DNA of 64,000 nt from an uncultured bacterium (GCA_963729625.1 CAVSOU010000007.1:1-64000), one strand, 5' to 3'; counted from the stretch's first letter, positions 18,074-41,116 are shown. Notes: generated from the letters alone by a model not told the origin. A program made the numbers and translations.

Positions 18074-19171
18074 GTGGGTGCGTTGGCAAGAGGAACCGGG
18101 CGACCCGCCACAATTCGTGACGTCGCCGCGCGCGCAGGGGTCTCATTCAAGAGCGTTTCCAACGTTGTTAACGATAGGCCGTACGTGTCCGCTGCGCTCA
18201 AAGCCAAGGTGCAGATGGCCATTGACGAACTGGCCTATCGTCCGCACTCAATCGCTCGGAGCCTCGCAAGCAGCCGCAGCAATATTGTAGGTGTCGTGCT
18301 CCGCGCGGCGCCCGTCGACGCGCGCGCCGACCCGTTCTTCTCCCAGTTCCTGCTTGGCGTGTGTGCCACCGCAGGTCCGCAGGGATTTGGCGTGCTCGTA
18401 CAAATCCTTGACAGCGAAGAGCCCGTCTTGCGCTACGCAGATCTGTTCGATCACAGGCAGGTTGACGGCCTTATCATGCATTCTCCCCGAGTGGACGACG
18501 ATCTTGGCGGCGAACCTACCGATAATGATCTGCCGACTGTGCGGGTCGGTCGCGCCCCGCCAGGCACGGATGCGCTGGCGGTCGATGGAGATGACGAACA
18601 GGGTGCGTTCTCAGCCGTGCAGCACCTCATCCGGCTTGGGCACAGGCGCATCGGTATGATCGCCAACGCGAGTCCCGCGTTTACGGTTTCCGTCACGCGA
18701 ACGCAAGGATACAGGCAAGCCCTGGCGGCGAATGGGTTGCCGTTCGACGCAAACCTTCTGATATCCGGGCACTTCACCATGCAAAGCGGGCGCGAGGCCA
18801 TGGCAAGGCTGCTTGATCTGCGCGACCGCCCAACGGCCTGCTTTGTCAGCAGCGATCGCATGGCACTTGGTGCGATGCAGGAGGCACAGCAGCGTGGCCT
18901 CAACATTCCAAATGACGTGGCGATCGTCGGCTACGACGACCTCTTTGTGGCCGGACATACGTGCCCACGTCTGACCTCGGTGAGGGCTCCAATCGACGCA
19001 ATCAGTACGCTCGCGGCACAGATGCTTGTCGACACGATCCGGGGCGCTAAGGTCGAGCCGCGACAGGTCATTCTGCCAACGGAATTGGTCATCCGCGAGT
19101 CCTGTGGCGGCTTGCAGCGCGAATCGGCTCACACCGCGCTGACGCCGAGCGGAACTGCGGAGCGTCGCTGA
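18074..19171 (+). CDS. LacI-family transcriptional regulator
   Basis: TIRDVAARAGVSFKSVSNVVN, HLIRLGHRRI, IVGYDD, LVIRESC. Confidence 0.95.
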   Translation: MGALARGTGRPATIRDVAARAGVSFKSVSNVVNDRPYVSAALKAKVQMAIDELAYRPHSIARSLASSRSNIVGVVLRAAPVDARADPFFSQFLLGVCATAGPQGFGVLVQILDSEEPVLRYADLFDHRQVDGLIMHSPRVDDDLGGEPTDNDLPTVRVGRAPPGTDALAVDGDDEQGAFSAVQHLIRLGHRRIGMIANASPAFTVSVTRTQGYRQALAANGLPFDANLLISGHFTMQSGREAMARLLDLRDRPTACFVSSDRMALGAMQEAQQRGLNIPNDVAIVGYDDLFVAGHTCPRLTSVRAPIDAISTLAAQMLVDTIRGAKVEPRQVILPTELVIRESCGGLQRESAHTALTPSGTAERR

Positions 19172-19391
19172 TTCTCGCCTTCGGTTGCCATAGAAGTGAC
19201 CATGTCACTGTCGGACTCGTACACGGTCTCGGTAGAGTGACCTGGAATCTCCTCCCACGCATGCATCCGCGACGGGGTTCTGAGGAACGCGAATAGCACA
19301 TCTGTGTCTAGCGCGAACGCGACCATCTGGCGTAGGATTGGAACACAACTGGGCGCGAGACCTTCATGACCGCACAGAGGCAGATGACCTG

Positions 19392-21494
19392 ATGATCGAT
19401 GACTCCACACAGCCATCGCCGGCAGAAGTTCGCCCAACCCACAGTGCCCCAGACCTCGAGCGCCAGGTGTCCCTGCCCGAAGAGGACGACAGCGAAGTTG
19501 GCGACGACGAGCCAGCGCCGGCAGCACGTCCAGGGGCACGGAATGCCACTGGCCGGCCAGCTCAGTATGGCGAGACCTCCGGCGACCAGGTGAGGCGCGC
19601 TCGCAGGCGGGCAGACTTTGGGCGTTGCATGGCAAAGATACTCGATCAGCTTCCACCTGGCACGCTGCTGACGGAAAAAGGAGCAACATTCTTTGCCGAG
19701 ATAGCCGCGGATGCCTGCGGAGCGCCTTCAGCCGGCGTGTTTCGGCTCGTCCACGGGTCCGGCGAAGTCCACCGCATCGACTCGGGCCAGATTCGACTGC
19801 TTTCACCGGTTAGTGCGCCGCTTCTCGAGAGAGCGCGGAAGCGGTCGGACGTGTTTAGCACGACGAGGCTGCTGGTCGCGCGAATATGGCCATGGGATCC
19901 TGACGATGTGGCGCGAAGCGCCTTCTTCGTCGTGGTGTCGGCGCCCGCAGACTCGCCGGATATGACAGGCTTCAATTTCACGCAGGTGGATCGACGCCGG
20001 ATCACGACGCTGACAACCCTGATCGGCCTGCGGGAAGCCGCGAACGAGCAGAAGCGGGCCGAACAACTCCTGCGCAAGGGCACCCGTGTCATGGCCGCCA
20101 CATCGCGCGTCGAGAAACGCCTTGCCGACCTCGCGGCCATGATGTCGGAAGCCGCTGGGGCGGAGCACATGGCCATTTGGCTCGCCTCACAAGGTAACAA
20201 CAACATCTTCCGCCTGCGCGCCATCGCGGGAGGACCGGCACTCGCCGATCGGAAGGATGATCTCTCGGCGAGCCCAGCAATGCAGCGCGATATGCTGCGA
20301 CTTGCGCAGGCGCGACCAGTGGCCGTGGCGACCTCGGCGGTAGACTGGCTGCCACGTATTTTCGACGTGGCCCCCGAGCAACTCGGCGATTCTGCTTTGG
20401 TCATACCTGTTCGTCGAGCCGGCGACCTCATCGGCGTCGCTACTGGAATCCCATCTGCAGAGAATGCGGACGGATTGGCGGATATTGGGCGCGAAACGAT
20501 CGTCAGCCTGCTTGAGGCGCTGGCTGATCAAGTCGCTCTCGCGACCGAGTTTGCTCGGTCTGCGCGTGACGCGCAACTGAACGCCCGCCGCTTCGCGCTG
20601 CTTGCGTCGATTGCCGAGATTGCACTGGCAAAGATGGGAGCCGCTGAAATGGTCGATGCGATCCTTGCGCGCGTGCGCGAGCACTTTGATGCGCACAAGG
20701 CGAGCCTGTTTTTGCTGCACGGAGACCGCGGTTCGCTCGGCACCCGATCCGTGCAGCGGCAGGACCAGACGGCTTCACGTCTGCATACGGCACGGATCGC
20801 TGTTGCGTGGGAAGATCAGCTTATTGGCAGTCTGGTCCTCAGGCGCGCGGACCAGCCGTTTGAAGACGGCGAAGAGGAAACGCTTGTTCAGGTGGCGGAC
20901 CAAATTGCGCTGGCACTCAGCGCGTCGGGACGCTTTGAATTCCAGGCGGCGATGGCCATTCTCGATATGCTGACGGACCTTCCCAATCGCAGGTCGGCTG
21001 AGACGACGCTGGACAGCGAGCTTGGACGTACCGCGTGCGACGCCGATTCCTCCTTGATCGTCTGTTTGCTTGACATTGACCTCTTCAAGGCGATCAACGA
21101 CCAGTATGGTCACGAGTGCGGCGACGTGGTGCTCAAGCAGATCGCCGCCATGTTCAGGGCGCAGCTGCGAGGCACGGACTATTTGGCGCGGTGGGGCGGG
21201 GAGGAGTTTCTTCTGCTGTTCAGGACCAACGATCTTGCTCGCGCGCGACAGGTGGCCGAGCGCGTCCGGAGGGCGGCGGGCATGATCAGTCCCAAGACGC
21301 CTCAAGGCAAGAAGATCGTCGTGTCGATGTCACTAGGGGGTGCCGTATGCCCTTTGAACGGTACAACCCGCGACCAGGTTATTGCTGCCGCCGACACGGC
21401 GCTGTATTACGCGAAAGCAGCCGGACGCGACCAATCCGCATGGGCGCCGATCGAGGGAGCCTCGATCGAGGTAGCCCATCTCGAGCTCGGGTAG
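19392..21494 (+). CDS. GAF-domain diguanylate cyclase
   Basis: DMLTDLPNRR, DIDLFKAINDQYGHECGD, RGTD I-site 5 residues before GGEEF, ADTALYYAK; GAF-like segments upstream. Confidence 0.93.
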   Translation: MIDDSTQPSPAEVRPTHSAPDLERQVSLPEEDDSEVGDDEPAPAARPGARNATGRPAQYGETSGDQVRRARRRADFGRCMAKILDQLPPGTLLTEKGATFFAEIAADACGAPSAGVFRLVHGSGEVHRIDSGQIRLLSPVSAPLLERARKRSDVFSTTRLLVARIWPWDPDDVARSAFFVVVSAPADSPDMTGFNFTQVDRRRITTLTTLIGLREAANEQKRAEQLLRKGTRVMAATSRVEKRLADLAAMMSEAAGAEHMAIWLASQGNNNIFRLRAIAGGPALADRKDDLSASPAMQRDMLRLAQARPVAVATSAVDWLPRIFDVAPEQLGDSALVIPVRRAGDLIGVATGIPSAENADGLADIGRETIVSLLEALADQVALATEFARSARDAQLNARRFALLASIAEIALAKMGAAEMVDAILARVREHFDAHKASLFLLHGDRGSLGTRSVQRQDQTASRLHTARIAVAWEDQLIGSLVLRRADQPFEDGEEETLVQVADQIALALSASGRFEFQAAMAILDMLTDLPNRRSAETTLDSELGRTACDADSSLIVCLLDIDLFKAINDQYGHECGDVVLKQIAAMFRAQLRGTDYLARWGGEEFLLLFRTNDLARARQVAERVRRAAGMISPKTPQGKKIVVSMSLGGAVCPLNGTTRDQVIAAADTALYYAKAAGRDQSAWAPIEGASIEVAHLELG

Positions 21495-21501
21495 CCACAA
21501 G

Positions 21502-22050
21502 CTAATCGACGTCAAGCAGCTCCAGCTCAATTCGATGTGGCTCGCGCGCCAGTACCTTGAAGGACCGCTCGTACGCCGCGGAAAGACTGCGGAGCAATCC
21601 CCCTGCGCTACGGCATTGCACACTCACCTGGAGCTTGCCCTGGTGCAATTGGCGGACCCGAATGTTCCCGGCCTCGGGGATGCTGGCCAGTGCTCGTTGG
21701 AAGCCACCAACCTCGCGAAATGATTTGAATGTGGACACAACCAGATCGACAAAGGCATTGTCTGCCGTCGCGCCCGAAACCGCCGATTGCCGCACGGCGC
21801 TCGCTTCGCCGTAGGCGCCGGCTTCGACGAAGTTTGCCAGATCCCTGATTCGCGCAGCCGGGTGCCACGAGGCAAATGCAGTGATGTTCGTTGCAGCACG
21901 GTCGCCGACAGTCTCCACAGCGCTCAGCCCTCCTGGAAGAGCGCGGTCAGGTGCTGCCGCCAGAGCGCCCGATCTCTGCCCCACGGGAAATGAAGGCTGT
22001 CCTCGTTCCTTATCCACTCCGCTTGTCAGGTCATTCATTTCGTACCTCAA
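21502..22050 (-). CDS. Hypothetical protein
   Basis: C-terminal alternating alpha/beta domain (VDLVVSTFKSFREVGGFQRAL..IRVRQL); same strand as the GT cluster. Confidence 0.65.
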   Translation of the reverse strand: MRYEMNDLTSGVDKERGQPSFPVGQRSGALAAAPDRALPGGLSAVETVGDRAATNITAFASWHPAARIRDLANFVEAGAYGEASAVRQSAVSGATADNAFVDLVVSTFKSFREVGGFQRALASIPEAGNIRVRQLHQGKLQVSVQCRSAGGLLRSLSAAYERSFKVLAREPHRIELELLDVD

Positions 22051-22221
22051 AACTGGTCATGCCGTGTGTTGGCTAGGTCGGAACGAGCGCCCCTCCATCT
22101 ACGGTAGCTGGTGGACGCCGCCGACTAGAACATCCAAACGGATAGAGATAGCCGCTCAGGCCATGTCCGACTAGGATATGCCTTACCGGCGGCCGATCTG
22201 GCCCGGATCCTGTTCGCGGCT

Positions 22222-22872
22222 CTAGGCCATCTCCTCGACCGAAGCCAGCGAACCCAGGACGACACGGGCGTGGTCGCCGTCGCGACCCGTATCTAGGGTT
22301 AACTCGACTGGTCCAACTTGCCCAGTCCTCGGGGATCGGCTGAGTCCCGCACGCCCACTGCCACCGGTAGTCGCTAGGGTGCTCGCACTGACGCTCGACG
22401 CGGGCGTAAAGACGAACCGGTTAGCGATGAAGAAGTTACAGGCAAATGCGGCTACGATTCCACCGGCATCAGCTTCCAGGTAGCGCAATCCGGAGCTCAG
22501 CAAGAGCGCAAACACCAGCGCGTTTATGGCGACTCCTGATATTGAGCTGAGTTGCGCTCGCAACGATCTCCAGACCCATTCGACGCCCCGGACGTGTGTC
22601 TGGTCACGGTACGTAAACCGTTGATTTGCATAAAAGTTGATCAGCGCGCTGCACTCGAACGCCATGAGCCACGCGAGCAGTGTATGCACGTGGAGCCCAC
22701 TATGAAAGAGCCAAAGGAAGCCCACGTTGATAGGGATCCCAACCGCGCCTACAAGTGCGAAGCGAACCACTCGGCGAGCCAGGATCGCATGTACTCTGGC
22801 AAGAATGTGAGACGATGGCACAAGAGGCTCCTTTGTAGAGGTCAATCCGTAACGAGTCTGTCCACTATGCAC
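22222..22872 (-). CDS. GtrA-family polyprenyl-P-sugar translocase
   Basis: VVRFALVGAVG..N, NFYANQRFTY, NFFIANRFVF; 4 TM segments. Confidence 0.9.
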   Translation of the reverse strand: MHSGQTRYGLTSTKEPLVPSSHILARVHAILARRVVRFALVGAVGIPINVGFLWLFHSGLHVHTLLAWLMAFECSALINFYANQRFTYRDQTHVRGVEWVWRSLRAQLSSISGVAINALVFALLLSSGLRYLEADAGGIVAAFACNFFIANRFVFTPASSVSASTLATTGGSGRAGLSRSPRTGQVGPVELTLDTGRDGDHARVVLGSLASVEEMA

Positions 22873-22947
22873 TGAGGATCACTTCACTGGGCTCAACCGT
22901 CCGCGATGACACCTGTGAGTTTCCCAGCAGAGCTTGAAGGCGGAGCG

Positions 22948-25900
22948 CTATACTGCCTCAACTTGCTGTGCCAAGGGAGATGGTACGTTCAACACTGACG
23001 TCGATGGCGCTCGGTTGGTAACGTGATACAGGCCGTGAATGGTCTTCTCCCAGTAGAAAGGGTTCGACCACAACTGCAGGAAACCCTTCCAGGCCGCCAG
23101 GCTCATCAGCGCCCAATACAGCGGCGAAAGCAGGGCGAATTTGACTTTGTCGTACATGCCCGGCCGCAGGCAGCCCGCCACATTCAGGTACACGAAAGCT
23201 GTGTTGCCGATGACGAGGCTTAGGCCTCCAAGATAGAACACCGGAGCCGGGAACAGCTCGCGTATGAGATGCGCGTGCGACGAGTACCAAAGCGCGGTGA
23301 GACACCAAAGGATCGGGTTCACTAGCAGGCCGAAAACTGTGCCGCCGATTACCAGGTTGAAGCTGAGAAACGCCTTGAAGCCCATCGTCCTGCACAGTTC
23401 AACAGGATGTCGCATGTGCACGAGGTATGTTTGGATGTATCCCTTCACCCACCGCGAGCGCTGCCGAATCCAGTTGTACACCTCGCTTGTGGCTTCTTCG
23501 TACGTCGTGCTCTCGATCACGGCCGTGCGCCATCCACGGCGATAGAGCCGCACGCCGAGGTCCGCGTCTTCCGTGACGTTATACGGATCCCAGGCTCCAA
23601 GCTCTAGCAAGTTCGAGACTTTGAAGTGATTTGACGTACCTCCCAGCGGAACCGGCGCTCCACTTGCGTCGAGGCCTGGAAGAAACAGATTAAACCACAT
23701 GGAGTACTCAATTGCGAACCACCGGGTCAGCAGATTCTGATCAGCGTTGTAATAGCTGAGTTTTGCCTGCAAGCACACAACGTCGGCAGGTACCTTGCGA
23801 AAGCCAAGCACTGCCTTCTTCAGCTGGTCCGGCTCTGCCACGTCCTCGGCGTCGTAGATAACCACGAACTCACCGCGAGCATGAATGAGGCCATAGTTGC
23901 ACGCCTTTGGCTTGCCGCGAGGTTGGCCCGTCGGCACTACAACAGGGTGCACGTATGCCGGCAGTTGTAGTGATGCTACAGCAGCGAGCGTTTCGCGGTC
24001 GTCTTCTTCGAGCAACAACTTCACGTCGAGCTTTGTCGAGGGATAATCGAGCTGGGCGAGGCCGGCAACCAGACCCGGCAGAACCGATGCCTCGCGATAC
24101 AGGGGAACCAATACTGTATATACCGGGAGGCTGGCCTCATCCAGGCCGGCAAGCTCCTCGGCGCTGACCGGTATCTCGAGGTCATGGGAGAGCGATTGGT
24201 AGATGAGATACACGCGGTAGAATGAGAACGCGGCGTAGAGCAGCGTGCTGGCCGCGGCGATCCCGATTCCGTATACGAGCGGCAGTCGCCAGAGCAGTGC
24301 GAGCGACATGATCCCCACAGCAGCAAATGCCGCGACCTGTGCCCTGGTGATCACCCGCGAGGCGGATTCCTCGGGAGATCGGGTCGCTAGCTCGGCACTG
24401 CTGCGCTCGAGATAGAGATCACGATAGAGCGACTCCAGAGCGGCCTCGAAGTCTTCCTCGGTACAGATCATAGGCTGGATTGTCCGCCCCAACTGAGCCT
24501 CGGCTTCTTCTCGAGCCACAACATCCAGTGGGTCGGGCATGACTGCTACCAGGATGGCGCCAGCCTCATAAAGCGGCAGGACCCCCAGCCGGCGCTCATC
24601 GTGCTCCGGAATGCGCCGCGCCAGTTCCTCGTCAATCCGAATGCCTCTCAGGCCCACAAACGGAAGGTCGAGCTGCTCCGCTAGAAAGTAGGCCAGCTGT
24701 TCCTGAGAGATCAAGTCGAGGTGAATCAGCGCCTGACCGAGACGCACGCCCGACCTCGTGTGAAGTGCCACAGCCCGCTCGAGGTCGGCGTCGGAAACCA
24801 CCCCGCTCAACACCAACCGTTCACCCAACTGGGTGCTGCCGCCTGCCCGTGCAATTGCCGCGAGGATGTCCGGACGAGGCGCTATGAGTAGCCTGCTCAT
24901 CACGGAGCCGAGCGAAGCGACGGTTGTACGGACGTCGGGCGAGCAGGGATCGGCAACCGCGATTACCACGCACGAGCCTGAAACGCTGAGGGACGTTCTG
25001 TTAGCGGACAGGCGATCAACGTCCGAGGACGCGTGCTCTCGACGAATGGGAAGAATACCGTACGCGCGAGCATCGGCAACCGGTATCATCGAGGCCGTCA
25101 AGGGATCGACCGACTCGTGCGGCAGGTCGACGCGAACACGACTTTCGCTCTCAAAGTAGATTTCCTCGAGCCGCCCAGTATGGCGAAGGTTGACCCGAGG
25201 AATGTTGCATTGGCGCGACGCCAGTTCCGCGAACTCCTCGAAATCGAGCACTCCCGCCTTAACCAGAGCCTCGTCGACTGCCGCGCCTGGAGCGTCTAGC
25301 TGCTGGAGCAGGTTAGCCCCGACCAGGCGTCCCTGCTGCTGCAGAAAATCGATAACAGGATGAGCTCGGTACATGTCCAGCGCTCGCGCCGACACGGCGC
25401 ACGCGCGCAGGCGATCGCGTATTGCTTCCTCGGGCGCTGCGACCGCCCTGATCGCCATCCCAGACGCTGACGCCAGAGCCCGGCAAGCACCACCAGTCGG
25501 AGCAGCCATCGCTACCCACAGCACGTGGCCTTCACGCCGAAGCGGAACGGCACAGAAGGCCTCGAGCTGATTGCGCGGAATCAGCTGTATCACATCAGGT
25601 TTGATCGCGTAGTGTTCGAGTCGAATGGACGGCACGGTGTGCCACGACTGAGCCTGGTCGCGCACTCGGTAGCCCTGTACGCTTTCGTCGTTACGACCGG
25701 AGCTTAATTCAACCTCGGCGCCAATTCCGCCGAGCCGGAGCGAGCTCAGCCGCCCCTCATCCGTGTCGCCATAGTGGCGCGCCAGCGCGCCTCGAAGCCG
25801 CTCCTCGCTCATCTCGTGCAAACGGACGCGGCGGGACGTAAGCTGCGCGATTGCCCGGCGAATCGCCTCGGCCTTTGGATTGCCGGTCACGATACCAAGC

Positions 25901-27003
25901 GTCAGTACGTCACGACTGGACATGATGGGAACGATCGACAGGGATCGCGCCAGCGCCAATGGAATTGCCACCATCGGTGCCTGACCCGCGACCGGTTCGG
26001 AATCGGCGGCGGGTCGCACGCGAAACGCAGCGGCGTCCCACCGATTCTGGTTGCGGGTTGATGCGGAAGCGTTGACCGGTGCCTCACCTTGGAAAGCACC
26101 CCGAGGCCGTGAGCGTGGATCGCCCAGAACAGCGCGTGCCGTTTCGCGCATGCGTCCAAAGGGCAAGCTGGCTTCACGTGGGCCTTCGGGTTTCAGCCGG
26201 CCAGACGTGTATGCGTTGACAACGGCGTGCAGCTCCGTCGCGTCACAAAGTATGCAACGTGCTGGCATCCCAGTCCACGATACGATTGCACGGATTGTGG
26301 CTTCATCAGGCCTGTGGACACAACCGACGACGATGTGCCCCTCTTCGAAACCCCATGGAACGACGGGATCGTCATCCCACCTCAACCTGATCGAAGGAGG
26401 CGCAAGTACACACAACGCGGGATCGAAGTCCATTTCGTGCGGGAGCAGATGCGGCAACCCTTCCAGCAAGCCCAATAGCTCGGGCCCCCATCCGTCGGCG
26501 AGGCCGGCTATCGCCGCGGCGACTGTCTTCGCCGCGCTCCGGTCGGCGCTGCCAGCTGCGGCAGAGGGGTCACTCAGCACGTACCTGAGTCCACAATCGT
26601 CGATCAGCGCGCGCAAGCGGAATGCCCGCATCAACTCCGCTCTGGGATCTCCGCGGCTTTCCGCAAGCGCCAGCGCGGCTTCTCCAGGCCCAACCACCTG
26701 TAGCTTCACCGGGCGACCTGTTGCGTTGGACAGTGCCCTGCGGCGCACTTCCCACCCATCGAGGAGCTCCTCACGAGCGCTGATCGCCGCGGCTTTGCCG
26801 CCAACTTGCTCCTGAGTCCCTGGACCAGTTGACACCTTCAGCGATACATCGACCTCGATCTCGCTCGGGTCAGGTGTGGCGATCAACAGACAGTCGCCAT
26901 CCTCTCCGACCACCACCGCCGATTGCTCGCGCGCAAGCGATTCCGGCAAGGTGCGCTGGAGGCTCGGGGTCGCGTGGCAGATGTTCCAGCCACTTTCAAG
27001 CAT
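22948..27003 (-). CDS. Processive GT2 glycosyltransferase with about 6 N-terminal MshEN/T2SSE_N-like repeats
   Basis: C-terminal part: YTVLVPLYRE, KPKACNYG, YDAED, VTEDADLG, QRSRW, WEKTIHG and TM helices. N-terminal part: repeated IP..A....VP......VA..DP modules and the motif QLGERLVLSGVV..RLGQALIHLDLI..AEQ. Confidence 0.9.
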   Translation of the reverse strand: MLESGWNICHATPSLQRTLPESLAREQSAVVVGEDGDCLLIATPDPSEIEVDVSLKVSTGPGTQEQVGGKAAAISAREELLDGWEVRRRALSNATGRPVKLQVVGPGEAALALAESRGDPRAELMRAFRLRALIDDCGLRYVLSDPSAAAGSADRSAAKTVAAAIAGLADGWGPELLGLLEGLPHLLPHEMDFDPALCVLAPPSIRLRWDDDPVVPWGFEEGHIVVGCVHRPDEATIRAIVSWTGMPARCILCDATELHAVVNAYTSGRLKPEGPREASLPFGRMRETARAVLGDPRSRPRGAFQGEAPVNASASTRNQNRWDAAAFRVRPAADSEPVAGQAPMVAIPLALARSLSIVPIMSSRDVLTLGIVTGNPKAEAIRRAIAQLTSRRVRLHEMSEERLRGALARHYGDTDEGRLSSLRLGGIGAEVELSSGRNDESVQGYRVRDQAQSWHTVPSIRLEHYAIKPDVIQLIPRNQLEAFCAVPLRREGHVLWVAMAAPTGGACRALASASGMAIRAVAAPEEAIRDRLRACAVSARALDMYRAHPVIDFLQQQGRLVGANLLQQLDAPGAAVDEALVKAGVLDFEEFAELASRQCNIPRVNLRHTGRLEEIYFESESRVRVDLPHESVDPLTASMIPVADARAYGILPIRREHASSDVDRLSANRTSLSVSGSCVVIAVADPCSPDVRTTVASLGSVMSRLLIAPRPDILAAIARAGGSTQLGERLVLSGVVSDADLERAVALHTRSGVRLGQALIHLDLISQEQLAYFLAEQLDLPFVGLRGIRIDEELARRIPEHDERRLGVLPLYEAGAILVAVMPDPLDVVAREEAEAQLGRTIQPMICTEEDFEAALESLYRDLYLERSSAELATRSPEESASRVITRAQVAAFAAVGIMSLALLWRLPLVYGIGIAAASTLLYAAFSFYRVYLIYQSLSHDLEIPVSAEELAGLDEASLPVYTVLVPLYREASVLPGLVAGLAQLDYPSTKLDVKLLLEEDDRETLAAVASLQLPAYVHPVVVPTGQPRGKPKACNYGLIHARGEFVVIYDAEDVAEPDQLKKAVLGFRKVPADVVCLQAKLSYYNADQNLLTRWFAIEYSMWFNLFLPGLDASGAPVPLGGTSNHFKVSNLLELGAWDPYNVTEDADLGVRLYRRGWRTAVIESTTYEEATSEVYNWIRQRSRWVKGYIQTYLVHMRHPVELCRTMGFKAFLSFNLVIGGTVFGLLVNPILWCLTALWYSSHAHLIRELFPAPVFYLGGLSLVIGNTAFVYLNVAGCLRPGMYDKVKFALLSPLYWALMSLAAWKGFLQLWSNPFYWEKTIHGLYHVTNRAPSTSVLNVPSPLAQQVEAV

Positions 27004-27036
27004 GACCTAACCTCATAGTGCTCGGGAAACCGTGCA

Positions 27037-27324
27037 TTAGGATCGAGTGCGCCGAACGCTCCGGGCAAAGAACACCACGAAGATGAAGGCACCTACGACC
27101 AGCGCGGGAAATGTAAACAGGCCGAAAATTAGCAGCGAAAATATTCCGCTCCACACGGCGACACGCGCCATGACCCCGATCGCCTGGGGTAGCAGAATCC
27201 AGCCCCCTGGCGACCGAGATCCGGCGTCGAGGCTTCCCTTCGCGGCGTCGCCCATCGTGGTCGCCACTGCGGACAGTACCGGAAGCCGCATGCGACGGCC
27301 TCTGGGGGAACTGGAGAACGTCAC
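27037..27324 (-). CDS. Small membrane protein
   Basis: GTG with RBS AAGGAG; long hydrophobic C-terminal half followed by basic residues; sits between two GT genes. Confidence 0.6.
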   Translation of the reverse strand: MTFSSSPRGRRMRLPVLSAVATTMGDAAKGSLDAGSRSPGGWILLPQAIGVMARVAVWSGIFSLLIFGLFTFPALVVGAFIFVVFFARSVRRTRS

Positions 27325-27365
27325 CGAGTCGAGACTCCTTGACTGGAAATGTGATTGACAACAGC

Positions 27366-28172
27366 TCAGTCGACCGCGTGGGCAGCACCGTTTGCGGTCT
27401 CGACCTGCAATGGCATGCCGCCGATCGGCAGCTTTCCGGCATAGCCGTATCCACCCGCGGCGGTCCTGATGCGAATAAGCAGCAGGTCACCTACCATATT
27501 GAGCGTGTCGCGCCCGGCGCGAACTCGGGAGTTGGCATCGAAATACCAGTCGATGGCTATCTCCTCGACGCGATATTCGCGCTTTCGCGCCAGGTAGAGG
27601 ATTTCGACATCAAAGCTGAAGCCGTCGAGTGTTTGTCGTGCGAATAAGTCGTGCGCCACACTGCGCCGGAATGCCTTGAAACCGCATTGCGTGTCTTTGA
27701 GCCCGCCGATGACAAGGCTGCACACGAGAAAATTGAACACCCTGCTCATAATCCGTCGCTTAAGTGGGTCCTCATAGAGATGCGAGTCGGGCATTGCCCG
27801 AGATCCGACTGCCACATCGCAGCCCCGGTCAAGCGCATCGAGCAACCGGTCAAATTGGTTGACGGGCATCGAGAGGTCCGCATCGCACAGCACGACGCGC
27901 TCGAAACGCGCCTGCAGCATACCAGCGCGCACCGCGGAGCCTTTGCCACGGTGGGGGCGCTCAACCAGCGTAAGCCACTGCATCGTGGTTGCGAGTCTTC
28001 GTACCAGGTCTGCCGTGCCATCAACTGAACCATCGTCCACGACGAGGACTTCAAAATCGCGATCGAATTTCGCGCCATACCGTTGGAGTTCGCTTAGAGT
28101 GCGAGGCAGGCGCTGCTCCTCGTTGTAGGCCGGGATAACAATGCTAACGCCTGAGCGCCGTTCAGTACTCAT
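27366..28172 (-). CDS. Dolichyl/polyprenyl-phosphate glycosyltransferase (GT2, DPG-synthase-like)
   Basis: SIVIPAYNEE, VDDGSVD, GKGSAVRAG, DAD, DTQCGFK, FDVEIL. Confidence 0.93.
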   Translation of the reverse strand: MSTERRSGVSIVIPAYNEEQRLPRTLSELQRYGAKFDRDFEVLVVDDGSVDGTADLVRRLATTMQWLTLVERPHRGKGSAVRAGMLQARFERVVLCDADLSMPVNQFDRLLDALDRGCDVAVGSRAMPDSHLYEDPLKRRIMSRVFNFLVCSLVIGGLKDTQCGFKAFRRSVAHDLFARQTLDGFSFDVEILYLARKREYRVEEIAIDWYFDANSRVRAGRDTLNMVGDLLLIRIRTAAGGYGYAGKLPIGGMPLQVETANGAAHAVD

Positions 28173-28554
28173 CAGTCGTGCCCTGGCGACCACCACACGT
28201 GAATCGCCATCTCCTTTCCAATGCCCTCGGCAGCTCAATGTCTCGAAGCGCCTATCACTGCCGACCTCGCCGCACCATGCGCCGGGTCAGCCAGACGGGC
28301 CAAGTATCCAGTTTGAAGCAGAGCCAGCATCGTCGCCCTGAGAAACAGAGTTGCTGCTTGGAGCGTCATCGCTCATCCGTGCCCCAATTTGAATCCTAGC
28401 CGCACGACCGCATTGCCAGTAACATCCAGGCTGTATAGCCAATCGGTCCATTCGGATGCAGTTTGGTACTGCCGAGCCGGGCAAACGGTCGCAATATCGC
28501 GACAGAGGGGCGCGCGGATTACGATGGCTTTCGATTCGAAGCCCGGCAAGAGAC

Positions 28555-29212
28555 TCAGCTGATCAGCCCCAACTGAACGGCGATCGCCGCTGCGTGCGTA
28601 CGGTTAGCGGTTCGCAGGGAACTGACCAGCGCCTGGAACTCCTAGTTTTGCCGCCGGCTCTGGAAGGCCGCGGACCGCGGCGATTTCCCGATTCGTTCGT
28701 CCCTCCGCAAGGAGCTCCGGTAGCCCCGCGTCAGGATCGCTGATCTGGGAACACGCCCAGTCAGTCATGAGCTGTCCGGATGATCGATGGCTTGTCAGTG
28801 CGCCGGACGCCAACGCTTGCCTGAGCACCGCGGCGTCAACCAACAGGCCTCCCGCGGCGACGGCATGGATCGAGTGTGACAGCAAATCGCGAGTAACATC
28901 CTTCAGCAGGAAGCCACTCGCGCCGACTCGGATCGTATCGATCATCAGCGTCTCGTCCTCGTAGTTCGTCATGATTATGACGGAAACGTTAGGCGCTTCA
29001 GCTTTGATTTGGCTTGTGACTTCAAGGCCGCTCGCTCCCGGCATGCGGATGTCCATGAGCACCACATCTGGGTGAAACTGCGCCACCAATTCAAGCGCAT
29101 TTCGCCCATCGCTGGTGTCCCCGACAACGCTGATACCCTTGCACTGCTCAAGCACGCAGCGCAGCCCCTCACGGGCAACTGGGTGATCGTCGACGACAAG
29201 TACGTTGATCAT
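28555..29212 (-). pseudogene. NarL-family response regulator with a +1 frameshift inside the LuxR HTH
   Basis: REC domain intact (VVDDH, MDIRMP, FLLK); after ~28642 the LuxR tail EFQALVSSLRTANRTHAAAIAVQLGLIS* continues in another frame. Confidence 0.8.
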
Positions 29213-29675
29213 CGGTCAGAATTCGCCTTGCCGGTGCATCGTTGGCCACCATATCTGCACGCGATTATCAGTCCAGGAGGGCTCTCTGGCGAAAGGAAAA
29301 ACGCCACCGACGGCTGTTCGCGCGATCCAGCCTTCGCGATTGAACTTCCCGCAGGCAGCGGATTGACCGTTGTCAACCTGATCGCGTTCGGTTATTCAGG
29401 CCCACCCCGAACTGAATATCGAACCCAGTGACACCACGAAGATTGCTCCAGATCCGGCTCAGTGTGGACAGTCCCCCTGAGCCCTGTGCCACATGCCCTG
29501 TTTGTGAGCAGTCGCTCTGAACAAACAGGCGGGCATAGTGCTCACGCTATATGCTAGGCCGCCAACGGTAACCAGGAAACACCCGACTGGCATACGAATA
29601 TCGGTCTACCAGGATAAAAGGTAGGGAAGCGGATCCCTGGAGGCTGATCCTGGGAACGCTTACAGAAGTCACATA

Positions 29676-30431
29676 TCAATCTATGACACCCAAGCGCATC
29701 GCGGTTACAGCGGCGTGTGTTCGGTCAGAGGCATAGAGCTTGGCTATGATCTCCTGCACGTGCTTCTTCACCGTAACTTCGGCAAAGCCGAGTTTGGCGG
29801 CAATCGCCTTGTTCGTCTTTCCCTCCGCCATCAGACGGAGGATGCTCTCCTCCCGAGCAGTCAATGTCTCTATAGGCGGCATCTCGGAGGGAGCGCGCTT
29901 CGAGTCTTTCCTTCCGGCGACCGCTGGATCCAACTGCAGCGCGCGCTTCAATAGGGATGCCTTGATCAAGATGCCTCCGCTCGCCACTGCCATCACCGTG
30001 TGGAGCAGTAGCTCGCGAGAGCTGTCCTTCACCAAATATCCGCCGGCCCCCGCCTGAATCGCGTCAAGCACGATCGCCTCGTCCTCGTACGAGGTCATCA
30101 TCACTACAGAGACCGTAGGGTGCTCGGCCTTGATGCGGCGCGTTGCCTCGAGGCCATCGATGCCGGGCATCTTATAGTCCATGAGAACAAGGTTAGGGTT
30201 AAGGCGGGCGACCATCTCGATGGCTTGCCCGCCGTCGGCGGCCTCACCGACCAGCTTGACGAGCGGACTGCTCTCAAGCATGGACCGAAGGCCTTCCCGC
30301 GCTATCATGTGATCGTCGGCAATCATGACGGTCACTTGCCCTCCCGGGTAGTCCGGGGACGCTCCGGGCACACTACCGACCTGTACCTGCTGGCTCTGCA
30401 AAGATGTCATCAGTGGACTTTCAGGGCTCAA
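29676..30431 (-). CDS. NarL/LuxR-family response regulator
   Basis: IADDH, MDYKMP, YLVK, LTAREESILRLMAEGKTNKAIAAKL..TVKKHV. Confidence 0.95.
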   Translation of the reverse strand: MSPESPLMTSLQSQQVQVGSVPGASPDYPGGQVTVMIADDHMIAREGLRSMLESSPLVKLVGEAADGGQAIEMVARLNPNLVLMDYKMPGIDGLEATRRIKAEHPTVSVVMMTSYEDEAIVLDAIQAGAGGYLVKDSSRELLLHTVMAVASGGILIKASLLKRALQLDPAVAGRKDSKRAPSEMPPIETLTAREESILRLMAEGKTNKAIAAKLGFAEVTVKKHVQEIIAKLYASDRTHAAVTAMRLGVID

Positions 30432-32046
30432 TTGCTAGAAGTGCTAGCGGCAACATAATACGAACCATAGTGCCCCGACCGGGACTGCTCAGCACATCAA
30501 AGCGACCATGCAACAGTTCCGTCCTGCGCCTCATGCTGATCAGACCTACCCCACCTTCCAGGGCATTGGTACGTGCTGGAATCGACGGGAAACCGACACC
30601 GTCATCCTCAACGGACACGACGATACGCTCATTCTCGCGGCGAATTGCAACGCGAACCGTTGTGGCCTGCGCGTGCTTCACGACATTGTTCAGGGCTTCT
30701 TGAATCACCCTGTAGAGTGCCGTCTCCACCGACCCGCTCAGGCACAGTGGATCGGCATCGAACGAGGTCAGCAATCCGGTGCGCTCTCCCAAGTCTCTCA
30801 CGTCGTACCGCAGCGCCGCGACTAGTCCCAACGCGTCGAGGCGAGCCGGGCGCAGAGACGCCACGATTTCGCGTGCCTGGCGGATCCCCTGGCGCACCAA
30901 CTCCCTGCCGCGCTCAAGTCGATCGACCTGCTCACTTCCTCTGCCGGCGCCAAGCTCAACCATGTCGAGGAACTGGTATGCAGTCGCCAGAGTCTGGCAA
31001 ATACCGTCGTGAAGGTCAAGGCAGATTCGCTCGCGCTCTTCTTCTTGTCCGTTGAGAGTCGCTTCGAGGAGGAGGCGCGTCTGCCGCTCCCTGAGGGCCA
31101 CCAGGTCAGTGACATCCTTCGCTGAGATCAGCATTCCTGTTGCGTATTCCGCATCCGGAAGCGTGCTTATCGAAGCTTCAAGGTAACGCCACGAGCCATC
31201 GTAGTGCAGAGCCTGGAACTCGAGAGGCGAGGCGTCCCCGCCGGCATCTCCTTTGCGAAGCCACTCGCGCGCCTTCGCCTCATCGCGCTCATGTACCAAC
31301 GACAGCCATGGACGACCAAACAGGTCGGCTGGCACATAGCCCAGCATCGTCTGCACTGCCGGATTGGCATAGCTGATGTTCAGGCCTCCATCGACAATCA
31401 CGACAAGGTCCGACACGCGGCGCACGACTGCACTGAGGTGCTCTTTGCTGAGCCTGGCTTCCTGCTCGGTACGTATTAGGTCACCGACATCTTGCAGGAT
31501 GCACACGACGGACGTGAGGAGGCCGTTTTCACGGACCGGGAACAGCTGAATCCGCGCCCATATAGGTCTGTTATTCTTGTTGCTCAGCAGGATGGAGACC
31601 GAGGTTGGATACCCTTCGGCAATGGCAGCGTTGAGCTCGGCGCGCGCCTCCGGGGCGGAGGGATCGGACGCGAGCATGCTTATGCTTCTCCCGATCGCTT
31701 CCTCGGCCGTGAATCCCGACAGCCTCTCGAACGCGGTGTTGACCATCACGATCGGCCGTTCAGGAAGCAAGGCGTCAAGGACGACCACGCTAACTCCCGC
31801 GGACGTGATTGCATGCTCGAGAGTCTGCAGAAGTGAAGGTCGAAATTGCCTGCCGGAAAACGTGGCGAAATGATCGGCCAAACGCCCACGAGGAACAGTG
31901 CCCGAAGGCAAAAAACCAAAATCCTGCTTCGCCGAATGGCGCTGTTTGTAGAAGCCTGACACTCCAGTATCCAACGGAAGCGATGTGTCGCTCTTAGGCT
32001 CGTTGAGCGTCTCTGAAGAGCGAGAGGCGGAAGGATCCTGGTACAC
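30421..32046 (-). CDS. Cytoplasmic PAS-PAS sensor histidine kinase (HisKA_3)
   Basis: Two PAS domains, EEERERICLDLHDG H-box, QEALNNVVKHA, DDGVGF, GVGL; no TM segments. Confidence 0.93.
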   Translation of the reverse strand: MYQDPSASRSSETLNEPKSDTSLPLDTGVSGFYKQRHSAKQDFGFLPSGTVPRGRLADHFATFSGRQFRPSLLQTLEHAITSAGVSVVVLDALLPERPIVMVNTAFERLSGFTAEEAIGRSISMLASDPSAPEARAELNAAIAEGYPTSVSILLSNKNNRPIWARIQLFPVRENGLLTSVVCILQDVGDLIRTEQEARLSKEHLSAVVRRVSDLVVIVDGGLNISYANPAVQTMLGYVPADLFGRPWLSLVHERDEAKAREWLRKGDAGGDASPLEFQALHYDGSWRYLEASISTLPDAEYATGMLISAKDVTDLVALRERQTRLLLEATLNGQEEERERICLDLHDGICQTLATAYQFLDMVELGAGRGSEQVDRLERGRELVRQGIRQAREIVASLRPARLDALGLVAALRYDVRDLGERTGLLTSFDADPLCLSGSVETALYRVIQEALNNVVKHAQATTVRVAIRRENERIVVSVEDDGVGFPSIPARTNALEGGVGLISMRRRTELLHGRFDVLSSPGRGTMVRIMLPLALLAIEP

Positions 32047-32741
32047 TGCGATGCTCCAATGTCAACGTCGATGCAGCCCATCCCACAATAGCCCCATGGG
32101 TGGCGCATGGGAATCCGCGCCAAGGTCTAGCTGAGAACACCTGGAACGATCTTCCGCAAGCCTAGCGCCGCCGCAGCGGTCCGCCGCCATCCACGCGCCT
32201 GGGCCGCCACGCTAGAATGCCCCACTATCGCACGATGTCGTTCCAATACGATAGTAGCAGATACCAGCATCGTCGCCGCGTCCGTCAGACTACATTGTCG
32301 CATCGCACCTGACCCGCAGATCTTCAGCGACCTCCCGCAACTGCCTGCATCGAGACACCCGGATAACTTCGGTCATGCAGAGGTTTCACGCCCGGAATCT
32401 ATCCTGGACCGGAGCAACTGGCCTTAAGTTGACTATACGCTACGGATCGATAGTTCGCAAGCCGAAGGCCATTCACCGTTGTACAAAATGCGGGCCCCGA
32501 CCGCCAGTCCGCGGTCATGTCGTGCTGGTGCGCGCTTCACGAGAATGAACGTGCGCCGCACTACCCGGGCTTGCTGGGCCGTTCTCTAGAGAAGCGTGCG
32601 GATAAAGTACACCATCGACAGGGCCACGAGTCGCCTTCGCTTCGAACAACCTGAGGCCGTCAGGCCCGCACCGATCGCCATCGCGCTTGCCCTGACCATG
32701 AACCTGTTGACTGCGTGGCAACCGCTTTCGGCGTGGGCGAA

Positions 32742-33248
32742 TCACGTAGAGTTTGGATCGTGCCCCTTGTCGGTGAGGAACCAAACATCGACGCTTGGTC
32801 CAGGGTAGGCTCGAAGACTGGGGTGCACGCCATCGTACGGCGCGGCAATAGTGCCGCGCACGATGAGGTCGTCACCCACGTTGATAGTAGTCAAATCGAA
32901 CGACGATGGCACGGACAGAATGATCTCTCCCTCTCCAGTTTGACCGTCGTACTGGCCGACATATTCCCAGCATCCTATTACGTTCTTGCCGCTGCCCAAA
33001 GCCTGGCCCAAGAGGTTAGCAACGTTGCACGTCCACGTTACGGCCTGGCCCAGGTAGCGCTTCGGGAGCCTGTTCACCTCGGTGTAGGTGTCATTCGTCG
33101 CCTGGCTATCCCACTGATCGATGGTGACCGTGGGTGTCGGCGGCGCGACAGTGCCCGAGCCACTTCGGCTCTCCATGGACAGCAGCACCAGAACGGCAAG
33201 GATTGCGATGACTATGCCTCCGATAAGCACCATACGCACCTTACCCAT
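32742..33248 (-). CDS. Membrane-anchored/secreted hypothetical protein (OB-fold-like)
   Basis: N-terminal hydrophobic anchor, PT linker, beta-rich domain (YLGQAVTW..VGDDLIVRGTI). Confidence 0.65.
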   Translation of the reverse strand: MGKVRMVLIGGIVIAILAVLVLLSMESRSGSGTVAPPTPTVTIDQWDSQATNDTYTEVNRLPKRYLGQAVTWTCNVANLLGQALGSGKNVIGCWEYVGQYDGQTGEGEIILSVPSSFDLTTINVGDDLIVRGTIAAPYDGVHPSLRAYPGPSVDVWFLTDKGHDPNST

Positions 33249-33611
33249 ATACCGCTCCCTGAGTGCCCAACATCTCAGCACTCAATGGCCATACGGCGGA
33301 CGCATATCTCCATCCACCGGCGGGGACGAGAGCCGCGAGCCTCAGATGCCATGCAGAGCACGTGGCGCGGGGTTCCACACAAACATGGAGTCCCGACAAG
33401 CCGGTATGCTTCGAACTGCCACCTTCGCGGCCACCTACCCCAGAGCAATCGCCCGTGTCGCTGGGGCCGGGCGAGCACGCGCGTGCACCACTGTGCACCT
33501 GCAGCATAGCCTCTCAGTGTGCTCGTGCGAAAGCAAGTTGTGGGCACAGTGCAGGCGCTCATGTGGGTGACATGTGGGCTAGCTGGGCATCGATTCGCCC
33601 ACGCTATGCGG

Positions 33612-38726: not shown

Positions 38727-39554
38727 GTGAATGCAGATCGCCGGCTCCTAGGCGGGCTGGGTAGAGTGGTTGGGCGCCAAAGTGCTGACGATCGCTCAAA
38801 TGTGCTCGGAATTCCTATCGACGCCCTGACCATGCGCCAGACGGTCGAGCAGTTGCTGGCCTGGATCACGCAGGGCCAGTCACGACACGTTGTCACTGTC
38901 AATCCAGAGTTCATCATGCTCGCACGCAGGAACATGACGTTCCGACACGTGCTGCGAAACGCGGATCTGGTGGTGCCTGATGGAATCGGCACGGTGGTGG
39001 CCGCGCGCATTCTCGGCAGGGCCCTTCCCGAACGAGTTGGCGGCGTCGACCTCGTCGAGCAACTCGCCGTCGCCGCGCCACCCGGCACCCGACTATTCCT
39101 GCTGGGCGCAAGACCGGGTGTTGCCAGGAAGGCGGCCGCTGTGCTGTCGGCTCGCAATAGCGGCCTACGCGTGTCCGGCGTCTTCGCGGGCTCGCCGTGT
39201 TTGGAGCATGAGGACGAGATAGCCCGCAGGATCATCGCCGCGCGTCCAGACGTGCTGCTGGTTGCCTTTGGCGCCCCGGCGCAGGAGTTCTGGATCGCGC
39301 GCAACCGAGAGCACTTGCGTGTGCCCGTGTGCATCGGTGTCGGGGGTGCCTTCGACTTCATTTCCGGTCGCACCGCGCGAGCACCGCGACTGCTGCGGCG
39401 AGCCGGTCTGGAGTGGGCACACCGGCTCATGCGGGAGCCATGGCGATGGCGGCGCATGCTTGCACTACCGCAATTCGCATTGCTCGTGCTTCTAGAGCGC
39501 GCGCGTTTCGCTGTGTCTGCGCGGCGGTGGAAGAGGGCCGACACGAAGTCATGA
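38727..39554 (+). CDS. WecB/TagA/CpsF glycosyltransferase
   Basis: VTVNPE, PDGIG, ERVGGVDL, GAPAQE, GVGGAFD, RAP..GLEW..EPWRWRR. Confidence 0.95.
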   Translation: MNADRRLLGGLGRVVGRQSADDRSNVLGIPIDALTMRQTVEQLLAWITQGQSRHVVTVNPEFIMLARRNMTFRHVLRNADLVVPDGIGTVVAARILGRALPERVGGVDLVEQLAVAAPPGTRLFLLGARPGVARKAAAVLSARNSGLRVSGVFAGSPCLEHEDEIARRIIAARPDVLLVAFGAPAQEFWIARNREHLRVPVCIGVGGAFDFISGRTARAPRLLRRAGLEWAHRLMREPWRWRRMLALPQFALLVLLERARFAVSARRWKRADTKS

Positions 39555-40687
39555 GTCGACCGGCCCGAATCGCAATCGTCCACGACTACCTGCTGCAGAT
39601 TGGCGGTGCGGAACGCGTGCTGGAGGCACTTCACACCCTGTGGCCGGCCGCGCCGATATTCACGACATTCTACGACCGGAAGAAGCTGGCGGCACGCGGC
39701 TTCGGCATCTCACCCGAGACCGTGCGACATCTGATGCCTGATTGGCTTCCGCGCAGACGACTACTTGCCAAAGCCTGTACGTTTGTCTATCCCTACGTCT
39801 GGCGAAGCCTTGATCTCAGTCGCTTCGACCTCGTGATCAGCTCGTCCTCATTCGCGGCGCACCAGATCGCAGTTGGGCCAGACGCGAAACATGTCTGCTA
39901 TTGCCATTCACCGCCGCACTTCCTCTACGGCCTGCACACCGAGCTCGACCACGACAGGATCCGCCGAGTGATGCCATTCCTGCGTCCGGAGTATGACCAC
40001 CTGAGAAGGCTTGACCAAGAAGCTGCCGCCAGGGTCACCCAGTTTGTGGCAAACTCAGAGGTAGTGCGCGGTCGCATCTTCAGGGCCTATGCTCGGCAAA
40101 GCCGTGTCATACATCCTCCCGTCAACACTGATGCCTTCACCCCGGCCAGAGCACCCCTCGACCGCACGTATTTCTTGTCATACGGGCGACTGGTGCCTTC
40201 GAAGCGCGTTGAGATTGCCATACAGGCAGCAAACATCGCGCGCGTTGCGTTGGTCGTCGCCGGCACGGGTCCCGATGCTCCGCGCCTCAGGAAGCTGGCC
40301 GGTGCGACGGTCACGTTCGCGGGTTGGCAACGTCCCTCCGACCTGTCCAGGCTCGTCGCGGGTGCGCGGGCCGTGCTTTTTCCTCCCGAGGAAGACTTCG
40401 GCATAGTTCCAGTAGAGGCCATGGCCGCTGGTACTCCGGTACTCGCGTATCGGCACGGCGGTGCGCTCGAGACCGTCGTCGAAGGCGCCACCGGCGAATT
40501 CTTCGCGCCGCAGACCGGTGCGGCGCTCGCCGAACTGCTCGTTCACTTTGACGACCAGCGCTACGATGCGCGCGCGTGCCGCGATCGCGCTGCCCTCTTC
40601 GACACAGCGGTATTCGTCACGCGAATGCGCCGCCTGGCGAGCGCAGTGCTCGATGGAACCATTGCATCTGAAGCCATGTTCGGGTAG
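39551..40687 (+). CDS. GT4 glycosyltransferase
   Basis: IAIVHDYL..GGAERV, YCHSP, EEDFGIVPVEAMAAG; ATG 39551 overlaps the tagA stop. Confidence 0.93.
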   Translation: MSRPARIAIVHDYLLQIGGAERVLEALHTLWPAAPIFTTFYDRKKLAARGFGISPETVRHLMPDWLPRRRLLAKACTFVYPYVWRSLDLSRFDLVISSSSFAAHQIAVGPDAKHVCYCHSPPHFLYGLHTELDHDRIRRVMPFLRPEYDHLRRLDQEAAARVTQFVANSEVVRGRIFRAYARQSRVIHPPVNTDAFTPARAPLDRTYFLSYGRLVPSKRVEIAIQAANIARVALVVAGTGPDAPRLRKLAGATVTFAGWQRPSDLSRLVAGARAVLFPPEEDFGIVPVEAMAAGTPVLAYRHGGALETVVEGATGEFFAPQTGAALAELLVHFDDQRYDARACRDRAALFDTAVFVTRMRRLASAVLDGTIASEAMFG

Positions 40688-40702
40688 CATAGTGAAAGCC
40701 AT

Positions 40703-40773: not shown

Positions 40774-40780
40774 CCCAGAG

Positions 40781-40818: not shown

Positions 40819-40841
40819 TGCTGCCGATTACTATGAAATTG

Positions 40842-41069: not shown

Positions 41070-41116
41070 TTATGATGGTGCCGGTTGATGTTCCGGCACC
41101 TGAGGGCATGGTACGG

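Follow-up and report, generated by a model that had tools for sequence, protein, structure and literature searches.

A nine-gene cluster was analysed in a 64,000-nucleotide stretch of DNA from an uncultured bacterium (GCA_963729625.1, CAVSOU010000007.1:1-64000; the whole stretch is called the window and is C7:1-64000 of the 5.41-Mb assembly G000, which is 87% complete). The cluster is read here, with moderate confidence, as an operon for a XagB/Sfz2-type synthase that is gated by cyclic di-GMP (c-di-GMP), with a split GtrB/GtrA supply and with a diguanylate cyclase and a two-component system as plausible inputs. The original prediction, made from the DNA alone, had proposed an undescribed, self-contained, c-di-GMP-controlled surface-polysaccharide system. 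Its nine genes were all recovered in the order given by open reading frame (ORF) listing and Pfam searches, and the domain content it assigned to the cyclase, the synthase, and the GtrA/GtrB-like module was borne out by the motif, family, and structural matches reported below. The cluster is a lineage-specific rearrangement of the XagB/Sfz2-type MshEN-synthase cluster and not a new kind of system.

A processive synthase with six MshEN-type modules

The synthase consists of six MshEN-type modules (residues 1 to ~870), two transmembrane (TM) helices, a family 2 glycosyltransferase (GT2) domain (~950–1190), and C-terminal TM helices. Its GT2 domain carries the motifs DAED (1051–1054), TED (1144–1146), and QRSRW (1181–1185), and D1051/D1054, T1144-E-D1146, and Q1181-R-S-R-W1185 were invariant across 20 aligned homologues. 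An AlphaFold2 (AF2) model of residues 720–1351 (pLDDT 89.5, pTM 0.89) matched BcsA, hyaluronan synthases (HAS), and chitin synthases in Foldseek searches, with E values from 1e-13 to 1e-8. Judged by its motifs and modelled fold, the protein is a membrane-integrated processive GT2 of the BcsA/HAS/chitin synthase/NodC type. No PilZ domain was found in it by Pfam at E ≤ 0.01, and in NCBIfam searches it missed the equivalog cut-offs for NfrB, CelA, and PgaC by a wide margin.

The synthase belongs to a large family. A word-index search, in which 7998 candidates of 743–2365 residues were scored, yielded 3292 homologues; among the 120 listed, most were ~1300 residues long, the named ones came from Chloroflexota metagenome-assembled genomes, and four bore the JGI name "glycosyltransferase XagB." An exhaustive search with the C-terminal 583 residues returned 2600 representative clusters at E ≤ 1e-30, and forms with a single MshEN module were present in Actinomycetota, Bacillota, Bacteroidota, and Proteobacteria. 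The predicted protein is assigned to the XagB/Sfz2 type by domain layout, the JGI names, and the partner sets of related loci. That the system is undescribed is therefore not borne out, the synthase being of a very large and already named family, and MshEN–glycosyltransferase fusions had been tabulated by Wang et al. (main text and supplement, PMC5013675). The six-module form was not found in the titles or abstracts retrieved on MshEN in Chloroflexota or on T2SSE_N glycosyltransferases. To our knowledge, no member of the XagB/Sfz2-type MshEN-synthase family has been studied biochemically, and the family is widespread, named, and poorly studied. The window cluster opens no new class of system.

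A FastTree phylogeny of 116 synthase C-terminal regions grouped the window with G001, a genome of the same genus, and the loci L096, L097, L098, L100, and L101 in a clade of 7 rows (support 100). This clade is nested in a larger one of 43 rows (support 96), most of which are six-module forms. Among the genomes of 40 relatives, the giant form was found in 2 of 4 from the same genus and in no others. Two loci nested in the window clade (L100:610-1581 and L101:748-1728) have short synthases of 635–649 residues in which the c-di-GMP motif is degenerate and the upstream GT2 is fused to a two-helix hairpin.

The sixth MshEN module as a putative c-di-GMP switch

The NCBIfam model for the c-di-GMP motif (NF053729, c-di-GMP_motif, 53 positions) was passed at residues 725–777, with 49.4 bits against a cut-off of 38, and at no other place in the synthase; the remaining five modules lack this motif and are matched by Pfam MshEN, a model of the C-terminal subdomain. 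Residues 725–862 align to the N-domain of c-di-GMP-bound Vibrio cholerae MshE (5htl residues 9–122) with an E value of 4.8e-16, and the model superposes on 5htl_B, which is MshE with c-di-GMP, with a TMt of 0.88, a root-mean-square deviation of 1.9 Å, and 36% identity. The motif comprises two 24-residue halves (725–748 and 754–777) separated by the spacer TRSGV. Of the 14 key c-di-GMP-binding positions of MshE given by Wang et al. 2016 (PMC5013675, section 6), L10, G11, G18, L25, R38, L39, G40, L54, L58, and Q61 are kept and L29 is conservatively replaced by Val, so that 11 of 14 are kept or conservatively replaced; those that differ are R9 (Q725), Q32 (H748), and the turn glycine G47 (D763).

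These features suggest that synthase activity is most likely gated by c-di-GMP in the manner of NfrB, through the sixth MshEN module, which lies closest to the membrane, and that the five upstream modules, which have lost the motif, probably serve as protein-docking modules. The alternative that the sixth module no longer binds c-di-GMP, so that the six-module array is a docking scaffold and control is exerted by transcription or partner proteins, is considered quite unlikely. It draws on the three substituted positions and on the relaxed published motif, which is met at 9 of 11 and 10 of 11 constrained positions and exactly in neither half, a point that also counts against c-di-GMP gating as such; the clearly degenerate motifs of the short clade members at L100 and L101 and the existence of MshEN homologues that have lost c-di-GMP binding (Wang et al., PMC5013675, section 12) point the same way. 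However, the positions critical for binding are those that are kept: in MshE, substitution of G11 or G40 abolishes binding and hydrophobic substitutions cost more than 10-fold, whereas changes at R9 and Q32 shift affinity less than 5-fold (PMC5013675, section 10). The domain cut-off is passed, G11, G40, and the Leu cluster are invariant in a 10-sequence subclade alignment, and across the 43-row clade including the window the conservation is 43/43 for G11, 42/43 for G40, 41/43 for Q61, 40/43 for L25, and 39/43 for R38.

A putative split GtrB-type enzyme upstream of the synthase

The best solved relatives of GT2_290, the 290-residue GT2 encoded in the same run of genes, are Pyrococcus DPMS (5mlz, 1.7e-17), ArnC (2e-16), and GtrB (7e-8), and in NCBIfam the top-scoring names were ArnC, dolichyl-phosphate hexose transferase (DPhHxTase), and PpgS, none of which reached its equivalog cut-off. 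GT2_290 is accordingly predicted to be the soluble GT-A domain of a polyprenyl-phosphate glycosyltransferase of the GtrB/ArnC/DPMS type. The mycobacterial enzyme PpgS has a GtrA-like partner.

Between GT2_290 and the synthase lies the small membrane protein, which is conserved in G001 and whose conserved part is a C-terminal two-helix hairpin of ~45 residues. Orthologues of GT2_290 (E values 1e-96 to 1e-102) immediately precede the synthase in L096, L100, and L101, as they do in the window and G001, which makes 5 of the 5 nearest-clade loci that include upstream DNA. L096 resembles the window in that the GT2 is followed by a separate 60-residue hairpin ORF; in L100 and L101, the alignment places the hairpin at the C terminus of the GT2. 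Given this fusion, the most fitting reading of the small membrane protein is a two-helix membrane anchor detached from GT2_290; the two would together make up a split GtrB. The fusion and fission of GT2 and hairpin offer a clue to a physical tie between lipid-linked sugar supply and synthase, and the upstream GT2, unlike the full nine-gene layout, extends beyond the genus of the window. Further Chloroflexota and Actinomycetota loci, which lack a GT2, also have a comparable hairpin ORF, with an invariant Pro, ahead of the synthase, and the hairpin may therefore contact the synthase as well.

GtrA, in which three hydrophobic segments were seen at the threshold used, could be a flippase or else a membrane-bound partner to the polyprenyl-phosphate glycosyltransferase. 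A GT2 and a GtrA domain, fused or adjacent, were found by Pfam beside related synthases in L052, L053, L057, L062, L064, and L092; 5 of these 6 loci also have a GT-C glycosyltransferase gene in the ±7-kb neighbourhood or contig, and the ORF directly downstream is labelled GT-C in L057. A GT-C gene is retained after the synthase in L096 and L097, at the position that GtrA and hyp182, a protein without an assigned family, occupy in the genus of the window. The sole close XagC-like (GT-C) gene found in the genome is C7:507304-508941, ~480 kb away beside a short synthase paralogue.

It could be supposed that the lipid-linked sugar made by GT2_290, the hairpin, and GtrA is destined for some other part of the envelope (a protein, a lipid, or a wall polymer), with no tie to the synthase beyond a common transcription unit. 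The cluster has no GT-C gene, and there are seven GtrA-family matches in the genome, so such modules are common in it. Nevertheless, the supposition is distinctly improbable given the GT2_290 orthologues directly upstream of the synthase in every informative clade locus and the recurrence of GT2–GtrA genes beside related synthases in other phyla.

Cyclase, kinase, and hyp182 as possible inputs

DGC718, the cyclase, matches Pfam GAF at residues 259–402 (45.1 bits) and GGDEF at 540–699 (144.4 bits, model positions 1–161 of 161). It carries the motifs DIDLFKAINDQYGH and RGTD-YLARW-GGEEF, with the I-site RxxD five residues before GGEEF, and its alignments to solved cyclases, PleD among them, are at E 1e-25; no TM or hydrophobic segment was predicted in it. 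With all catalytic and I-site motifs present, it is predicted to be an intact diguanylate cyclase, as originally claimed.

The genome encodes a second synthase, a 681-residue paralogue with a single MshEN module whose motif passes NF053729 (C7:~505.2–507.2 kb). A GGDEF–HD-GYP gene precedes it, the XagC-like GT-C and a kinase gene follow, and a PBP-PAS-GGDEF-EAL gene lies 5 kb upstream. In this stretch (L090, C7:496000-515999) the genes form a canonical xag-type locus, and six GGDEF-domain matches in five reading frames fall within C7:478965-503345.

Both synthase paralogues of the genome (2/2) have a GGDEF gene within 2 kb. With 22 GGDEF matches above cut-off in 5.41 Mb, rough arithmetic with a 3-kb flank on each side puts the chance of such a neighbour at ~2% per locus, which argues that c-di-GMP signalling and the synthase family are connected in this organism; adjacency to GGDEF genes does not in itself show local signalling, and a local route from DGC718 to the synthase is suggested by adjacency. 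In the supplement of Wang et al. (PMC5013675), the four tabulated Chloroflexi genomes have MshEN proteins but neither PilZ nor any other known receptor, and the synthase family is therefore probably a main output of c-di-GMP signalling in Chloroflexota.

The chief competitor to the favoured reading holds that the synthase operon is real but that the adjacent cyclase and two-component genes have nothing to do with it, any c-di-GMP coming from the global pool or from other cyclases. We consider it unlikely, while giving it more weight than the other alternatives. The cyclase gene is on the opposite strand, the gene combination is confined to one genus, and the closest loci outside the genus (L096, L097, L098, L100, and L101) have no GGDEF or two-component gene on the DNA available. 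Set against this are the GGDEF genes beside both paralogues and the presence of GGDEF-domain genes, intact or degenerate, near related synthases in 13/80 genome and 17/80 metagenome loci.

GGDEF-domain neighbours in five Chloroflexota six-module genome loci (L011, L012, L013, L019, and L044, the GGDEF288 cluster) are ~290-residue proteins with four TM helices and a degenerate GGDEF motif (such as GGEKY or EGATF), possibly receptors rather than cyclases.

The C-terminal ferredoxin-like domain of hyp182 (residues ~98–180) follows a disordered N terminus. Its AF2 model (C-terminal ~85 residues, pLDDT 90.1) has the order β-α-β-β-α-β-β; Foldseek gave no match in the Protein Data Bank at E ≤ 0.001, and the best VIA-align Z score was 7.5, to generic ferredoxin-like/HMA folds. 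Only 9 homologues of near length were found, and the nearest Atlas clusters are unnamed Chloroflexota hypotheticals. A hyp182-like domain also forms the C terminus of longer proteins in other six-module loci (4–5 genome and 11 metagenome loci, Chloroflexota-type loci among them), where the genes for these proteins lie just ahead of those for the hairpin and synthase. The domain is a recurrent accessory of synthase loci. Three such proteins (L131:297-1202, L011:6758-7552, and L109:8189-9274) have N termini that are DivIVA-like or coiled-coil, above the Pfam cut-off in L131 only. These N termini hint at spatial targeting of the synthase. A DivIVA link was also considered for small coiled-coil ORFs upstream of Bacillota synthases and was rejected, as there were sub-threshold matches only, in 2 of 7.

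A LOV photoreceptor role was likewise rejected for the histidine kinase: its first PAS domain (residues ~95–187) scores against LOV/YtvA-type models, but the motif GRSISML is without the photoactive Cys.

Under the favoured reading, the synthase would polymerise a nucleotide-sugar and thread the chain through its own TM channel, as its fold suggests; c-di-GMP binding at the sixth MshEN module would gate it, and the five degenerate upstream modules would dock proteins. GT2_290 and the hairpin would load a sugar onto polyprenyl phosphate, and GtrA would assist or flip the product, in keeping with their families. Outside the membrane, a GT-C enzyme, encoded elsewhere than in the cluster, would use the lipid-linked sugar to modify the polymer. 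By adjacency, the convergent GAF-GGDEF cyclase is a plausible source of c-di-GMP, and the PAS kinase with its NarL regulator may plausibly control synthase transcription. A bolder version, in which a single membrane complex unites the synthase, the free hairpin, and the GtrB-like GT-A domain, the polyprenyl-phosphate sugar is the direct primer or in-membrane branching donor in a genus without a neighbouring GT-C, and the degenerate MshEN modules and hyp182 recruit the cyclase into a private c-di-GMP circuit, is regarded as a long shot.

Conservation of the neighbourhood

The nine window proteins were searched at E ≤ 1e-5 against the six-frame ORFs of 80 related genome loci and of a second set of 80 metagenome loci. 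The metagenome relatives were obtained by an alignment-based scan, a scan with a single protein having given none, and their counts are lower bounds because in 17 of the 80 even the synthase escaped the simple gene caller. Matches to GT2_290 were the most frequent (16/80 genome loci, two being the synthase's own domain, and 18/80 metagenome loci), and matches to hyp182 (2/80 and 4/80) and to the small ORF (0/80 and 3/80) were few. G001 has all nine genes in identical order.

Unsupervised clustering of neighbour proteins brought out the usual partners. The commonest is a ~540-residue PMT_2-like GT-C, encoded mostly immediately downstream of the synthase in 49/80 genome and 43/80 metagenome loci, and it is joined by a BcsB-like protein (23/80 and 11/80), GGDEF-domain proteins (7/80 and 17/80), GH5 hydrolases (11 + 8 of 80 genome loci), and ManC (9/80 genome loci). 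In L098, L100, and L101, the ORFs that follow the synthase look like off-frame artefacts and were not accepted as real genes.

Several of these results, in addition to the inexact motif noted above, weigh against the favoured reading. Matches were scarce for the cyclase near the synthase (8/80 genome and 6/80 metagenome loci), GtrA (3/80 in each set), the regulators (4–5/80 and 3–4/80), and the kinase (5/80 and 4/80), and in the nearest clade it is only in the two genomes of the same genus that the synthase has the cyclase, two-component system, GtrA, and hyp182 beside it. A synteny check proposed with the original prediction went the same way: cyclase, GtrA, MshEN-GT2 synthase, and GT2 occurred together in one same-genus genome and in none of the 160 other related loci. 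The GT-C, BcsB-like, and GH5 partners are all absent from the window locus (19338–32046), PF03170 (BcsB) has no match in the whole 87%-complete genome, and a GtrC-type GT-C transferase was found neither in the cluster nor in the other window ORFs that were scanned. Since Gtr-type decoration needs a GT-C, its absence from the cluster leaves the description of the module as self-contained unsupported.

The regulators and the regulatory DNA add to these points. Of the two NarL regulators originally listed, the REC-GerE one has an intact helix-turn-helix (HTH) domain, whereas the other is truncated relative to its G001 orthologue by a 1-nucleotide insertion near 28645, within the HTH-coding part. 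The old frame beyond the insertion still reads to the normal C terminus, and the truncation may reflect true pseudogenization or else a fault in the assembly. Small shares were found in three DNA metagenome runs, and the contigs are short fragments, none of which spans ~28645. An Rfam scan of 18500–33500 for riboswitch or other RNA control (E ≤ 1) returned two chance lncRNA matches only, a promoter consensus scan gave 6 promoter-like sites against 2.8 expected, and terminator-like sites were fewer than in shuffles; neither of the last two scans gave anything usable.

By this distribution, the lineage of the window has lost its GT-C and BcsB neighbours, kept the clade-specific split GtrB, and gained GtrA, hyp182, the intact cyclase, and the two-component system. 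With its synthase, split lipid-sugar enzyme, and one intact cyclase, the window variant makes a compact test set.

Comparison with characterized systems

The relevant passages of PMC3609779 describe the Xanthomonas xagABCD operon as needed for biofilm and up-regulated in a mutant of the HD-GYP gene rpfG, and genetics there ties xagA/xagB to biofilm and to the regulator RpfG. Sfz2/Sfb2 is the family name used, in the corresponding parts of PMC4643136 and PMC8250860, for the "bcsB-xagBCD" sfz/sfb stalk clusters of iron oxidisers. XagB, Sfz2/Sfb2, and the window synthase have in common an N-terminal MshEN-type domain and a Glyco_trans_2_3 membrane synthase, and the xag/sfz clusters, as described in those parts, share with the related loci a BcsB-like partner, a GT-C-like membrane protein, and a glycoside hydrolase (PMC4643136, PMC8250860). 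They differ in that XagB has one MshEN module and the window synthase six, and in that the BcsB-like and XagC-like neighbours of the XagB/Sfz2 clusters are replaced in the window by the split GtrB, GtrA, hyp182, the convergent cyclase, and the two-component system.

NfrB of Escherichia coli is presented in the relevant section of PMC8669469 as a c-di-GMP-activated GT2-MshEN synthase, with DgcJ in a dedicated-cyclase model. It and the window synthase are both processive GT2 enzymes with DxD, TED, and QxxRW motifs and an MshEN domain of the c-di-GMP receptor type. However, the GT2 comes first and MshEN last in NfrB, the reverse of the window synthase; the NfrB model NF008411 scores 74.2 against a cut-off of 1170, aligned to the MshEN part only; and the NfrA and YbcH of the nfr operon are both missing from the window locus. 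The host is apparently of a monoderm-type Chloroflexota lineage, unlike the E. coli host of NfrB.

BcsA is the closest solved fold for the modelled GT2 and TM part of the synthase, although its C-terminal PilZ domain has no counterpart there and the CelA model TIGR03030 scores 67.8 against a cut-off of 699.1. BcsB, the partner of BcsA, was found in many related loci but not in the genome of the window. The three-component Gtr systems (GtrA flippase, GtrB polyprenyl-phosphate glycosyltransferase, and GtrC-type GT-C) share with the window a GtrB-like GT-A domain and a GtrA-family protein. The C-terminal two-helix anchor that Gtr systems and Pyrococcus DPMS have would be supplied in trans in the window, where GtrB, a single gene in Gtr-type modules, appears split in two, without a GT-C partner and embedded in a synthase operon.

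Organization of the cluster

Genes were called by ORF listing and Pfam (Table 1); the first start codons listed are ORF maxima and unproven as starts. In transcription order, the minus strand carries the kinase, REC-GerE regulator, REC-only regulator, GT2_290, small ORF, synthase, GtrA, and hyp182. The cyclase gene is convergent with this run, its stop codon lying 7 nucleotides from that of hyp182. The kinase and REC-GerE genes overlap by 11 nucleotides, and gaps of 463 and 365 nucleotides separate REC-GerE from REC-only and REC-only from GT2_290. From GT2_290 through the small ORF, synthase, and GtrA to hyp182, the gaps are 41, 33, 75, and 171 nucleotides, and because of this short spacing the five genes look like one transcription unit, the putative operon core.

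Table 1. Genes and predicted motif of the cluster, in window coordinates
Feature	Position	Strand	Details
GAF-GAF-GGDEF diguanylate cyclase (DGC718)	19338..21494	+	718 aa from TTG; ATG at 19392
hyp182	21502..22050	-	138–182 aa; no Pfam/NCBIfam family
GtrA-family membrane protein	22222..22872	-	216 aa; PF04138 (GtrA_DPMS_TM) 80.6 bits, cut-off 26.1
Synthase	22948..27003	-	1351 aa; six MshEN stretches + Glyco_tranf_2_3 / Glyco_trans_2_3
Predicted c-di-GMP-binding motif (synthase residues 725–777)	24673..24831	-	53 residues; NF053729
Small membrane protein	27037..27324	-	≤95 aa; two C-terminal hydrophobic helices by hydropathy
GT2_290	27366..28238	-	290 aa; PF00535 Glycos_transf_2 100.3 bits
NarL-type response regulator, REC only	28604..29212	-	HTH truncated; Pfam and comparison with same-genus orthologue
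NarL-type response regulator, REC + GerE	29676..30431	-	Pfam, NCBIfam
Cytoplasmic histidine kinase, PAS-PAS-HisKA_3-HATPase	30421..32046	-	Pfam, NCBIfam

The genes flanking the cluster have unrelated housekeeping or sugar-uptake functions. At 39329–42646, ~7 kb past the cluster, the window holds a GT4 glycosyltransferase gene followed by a 524-residue ORF with high GC3 and no Pfam family.

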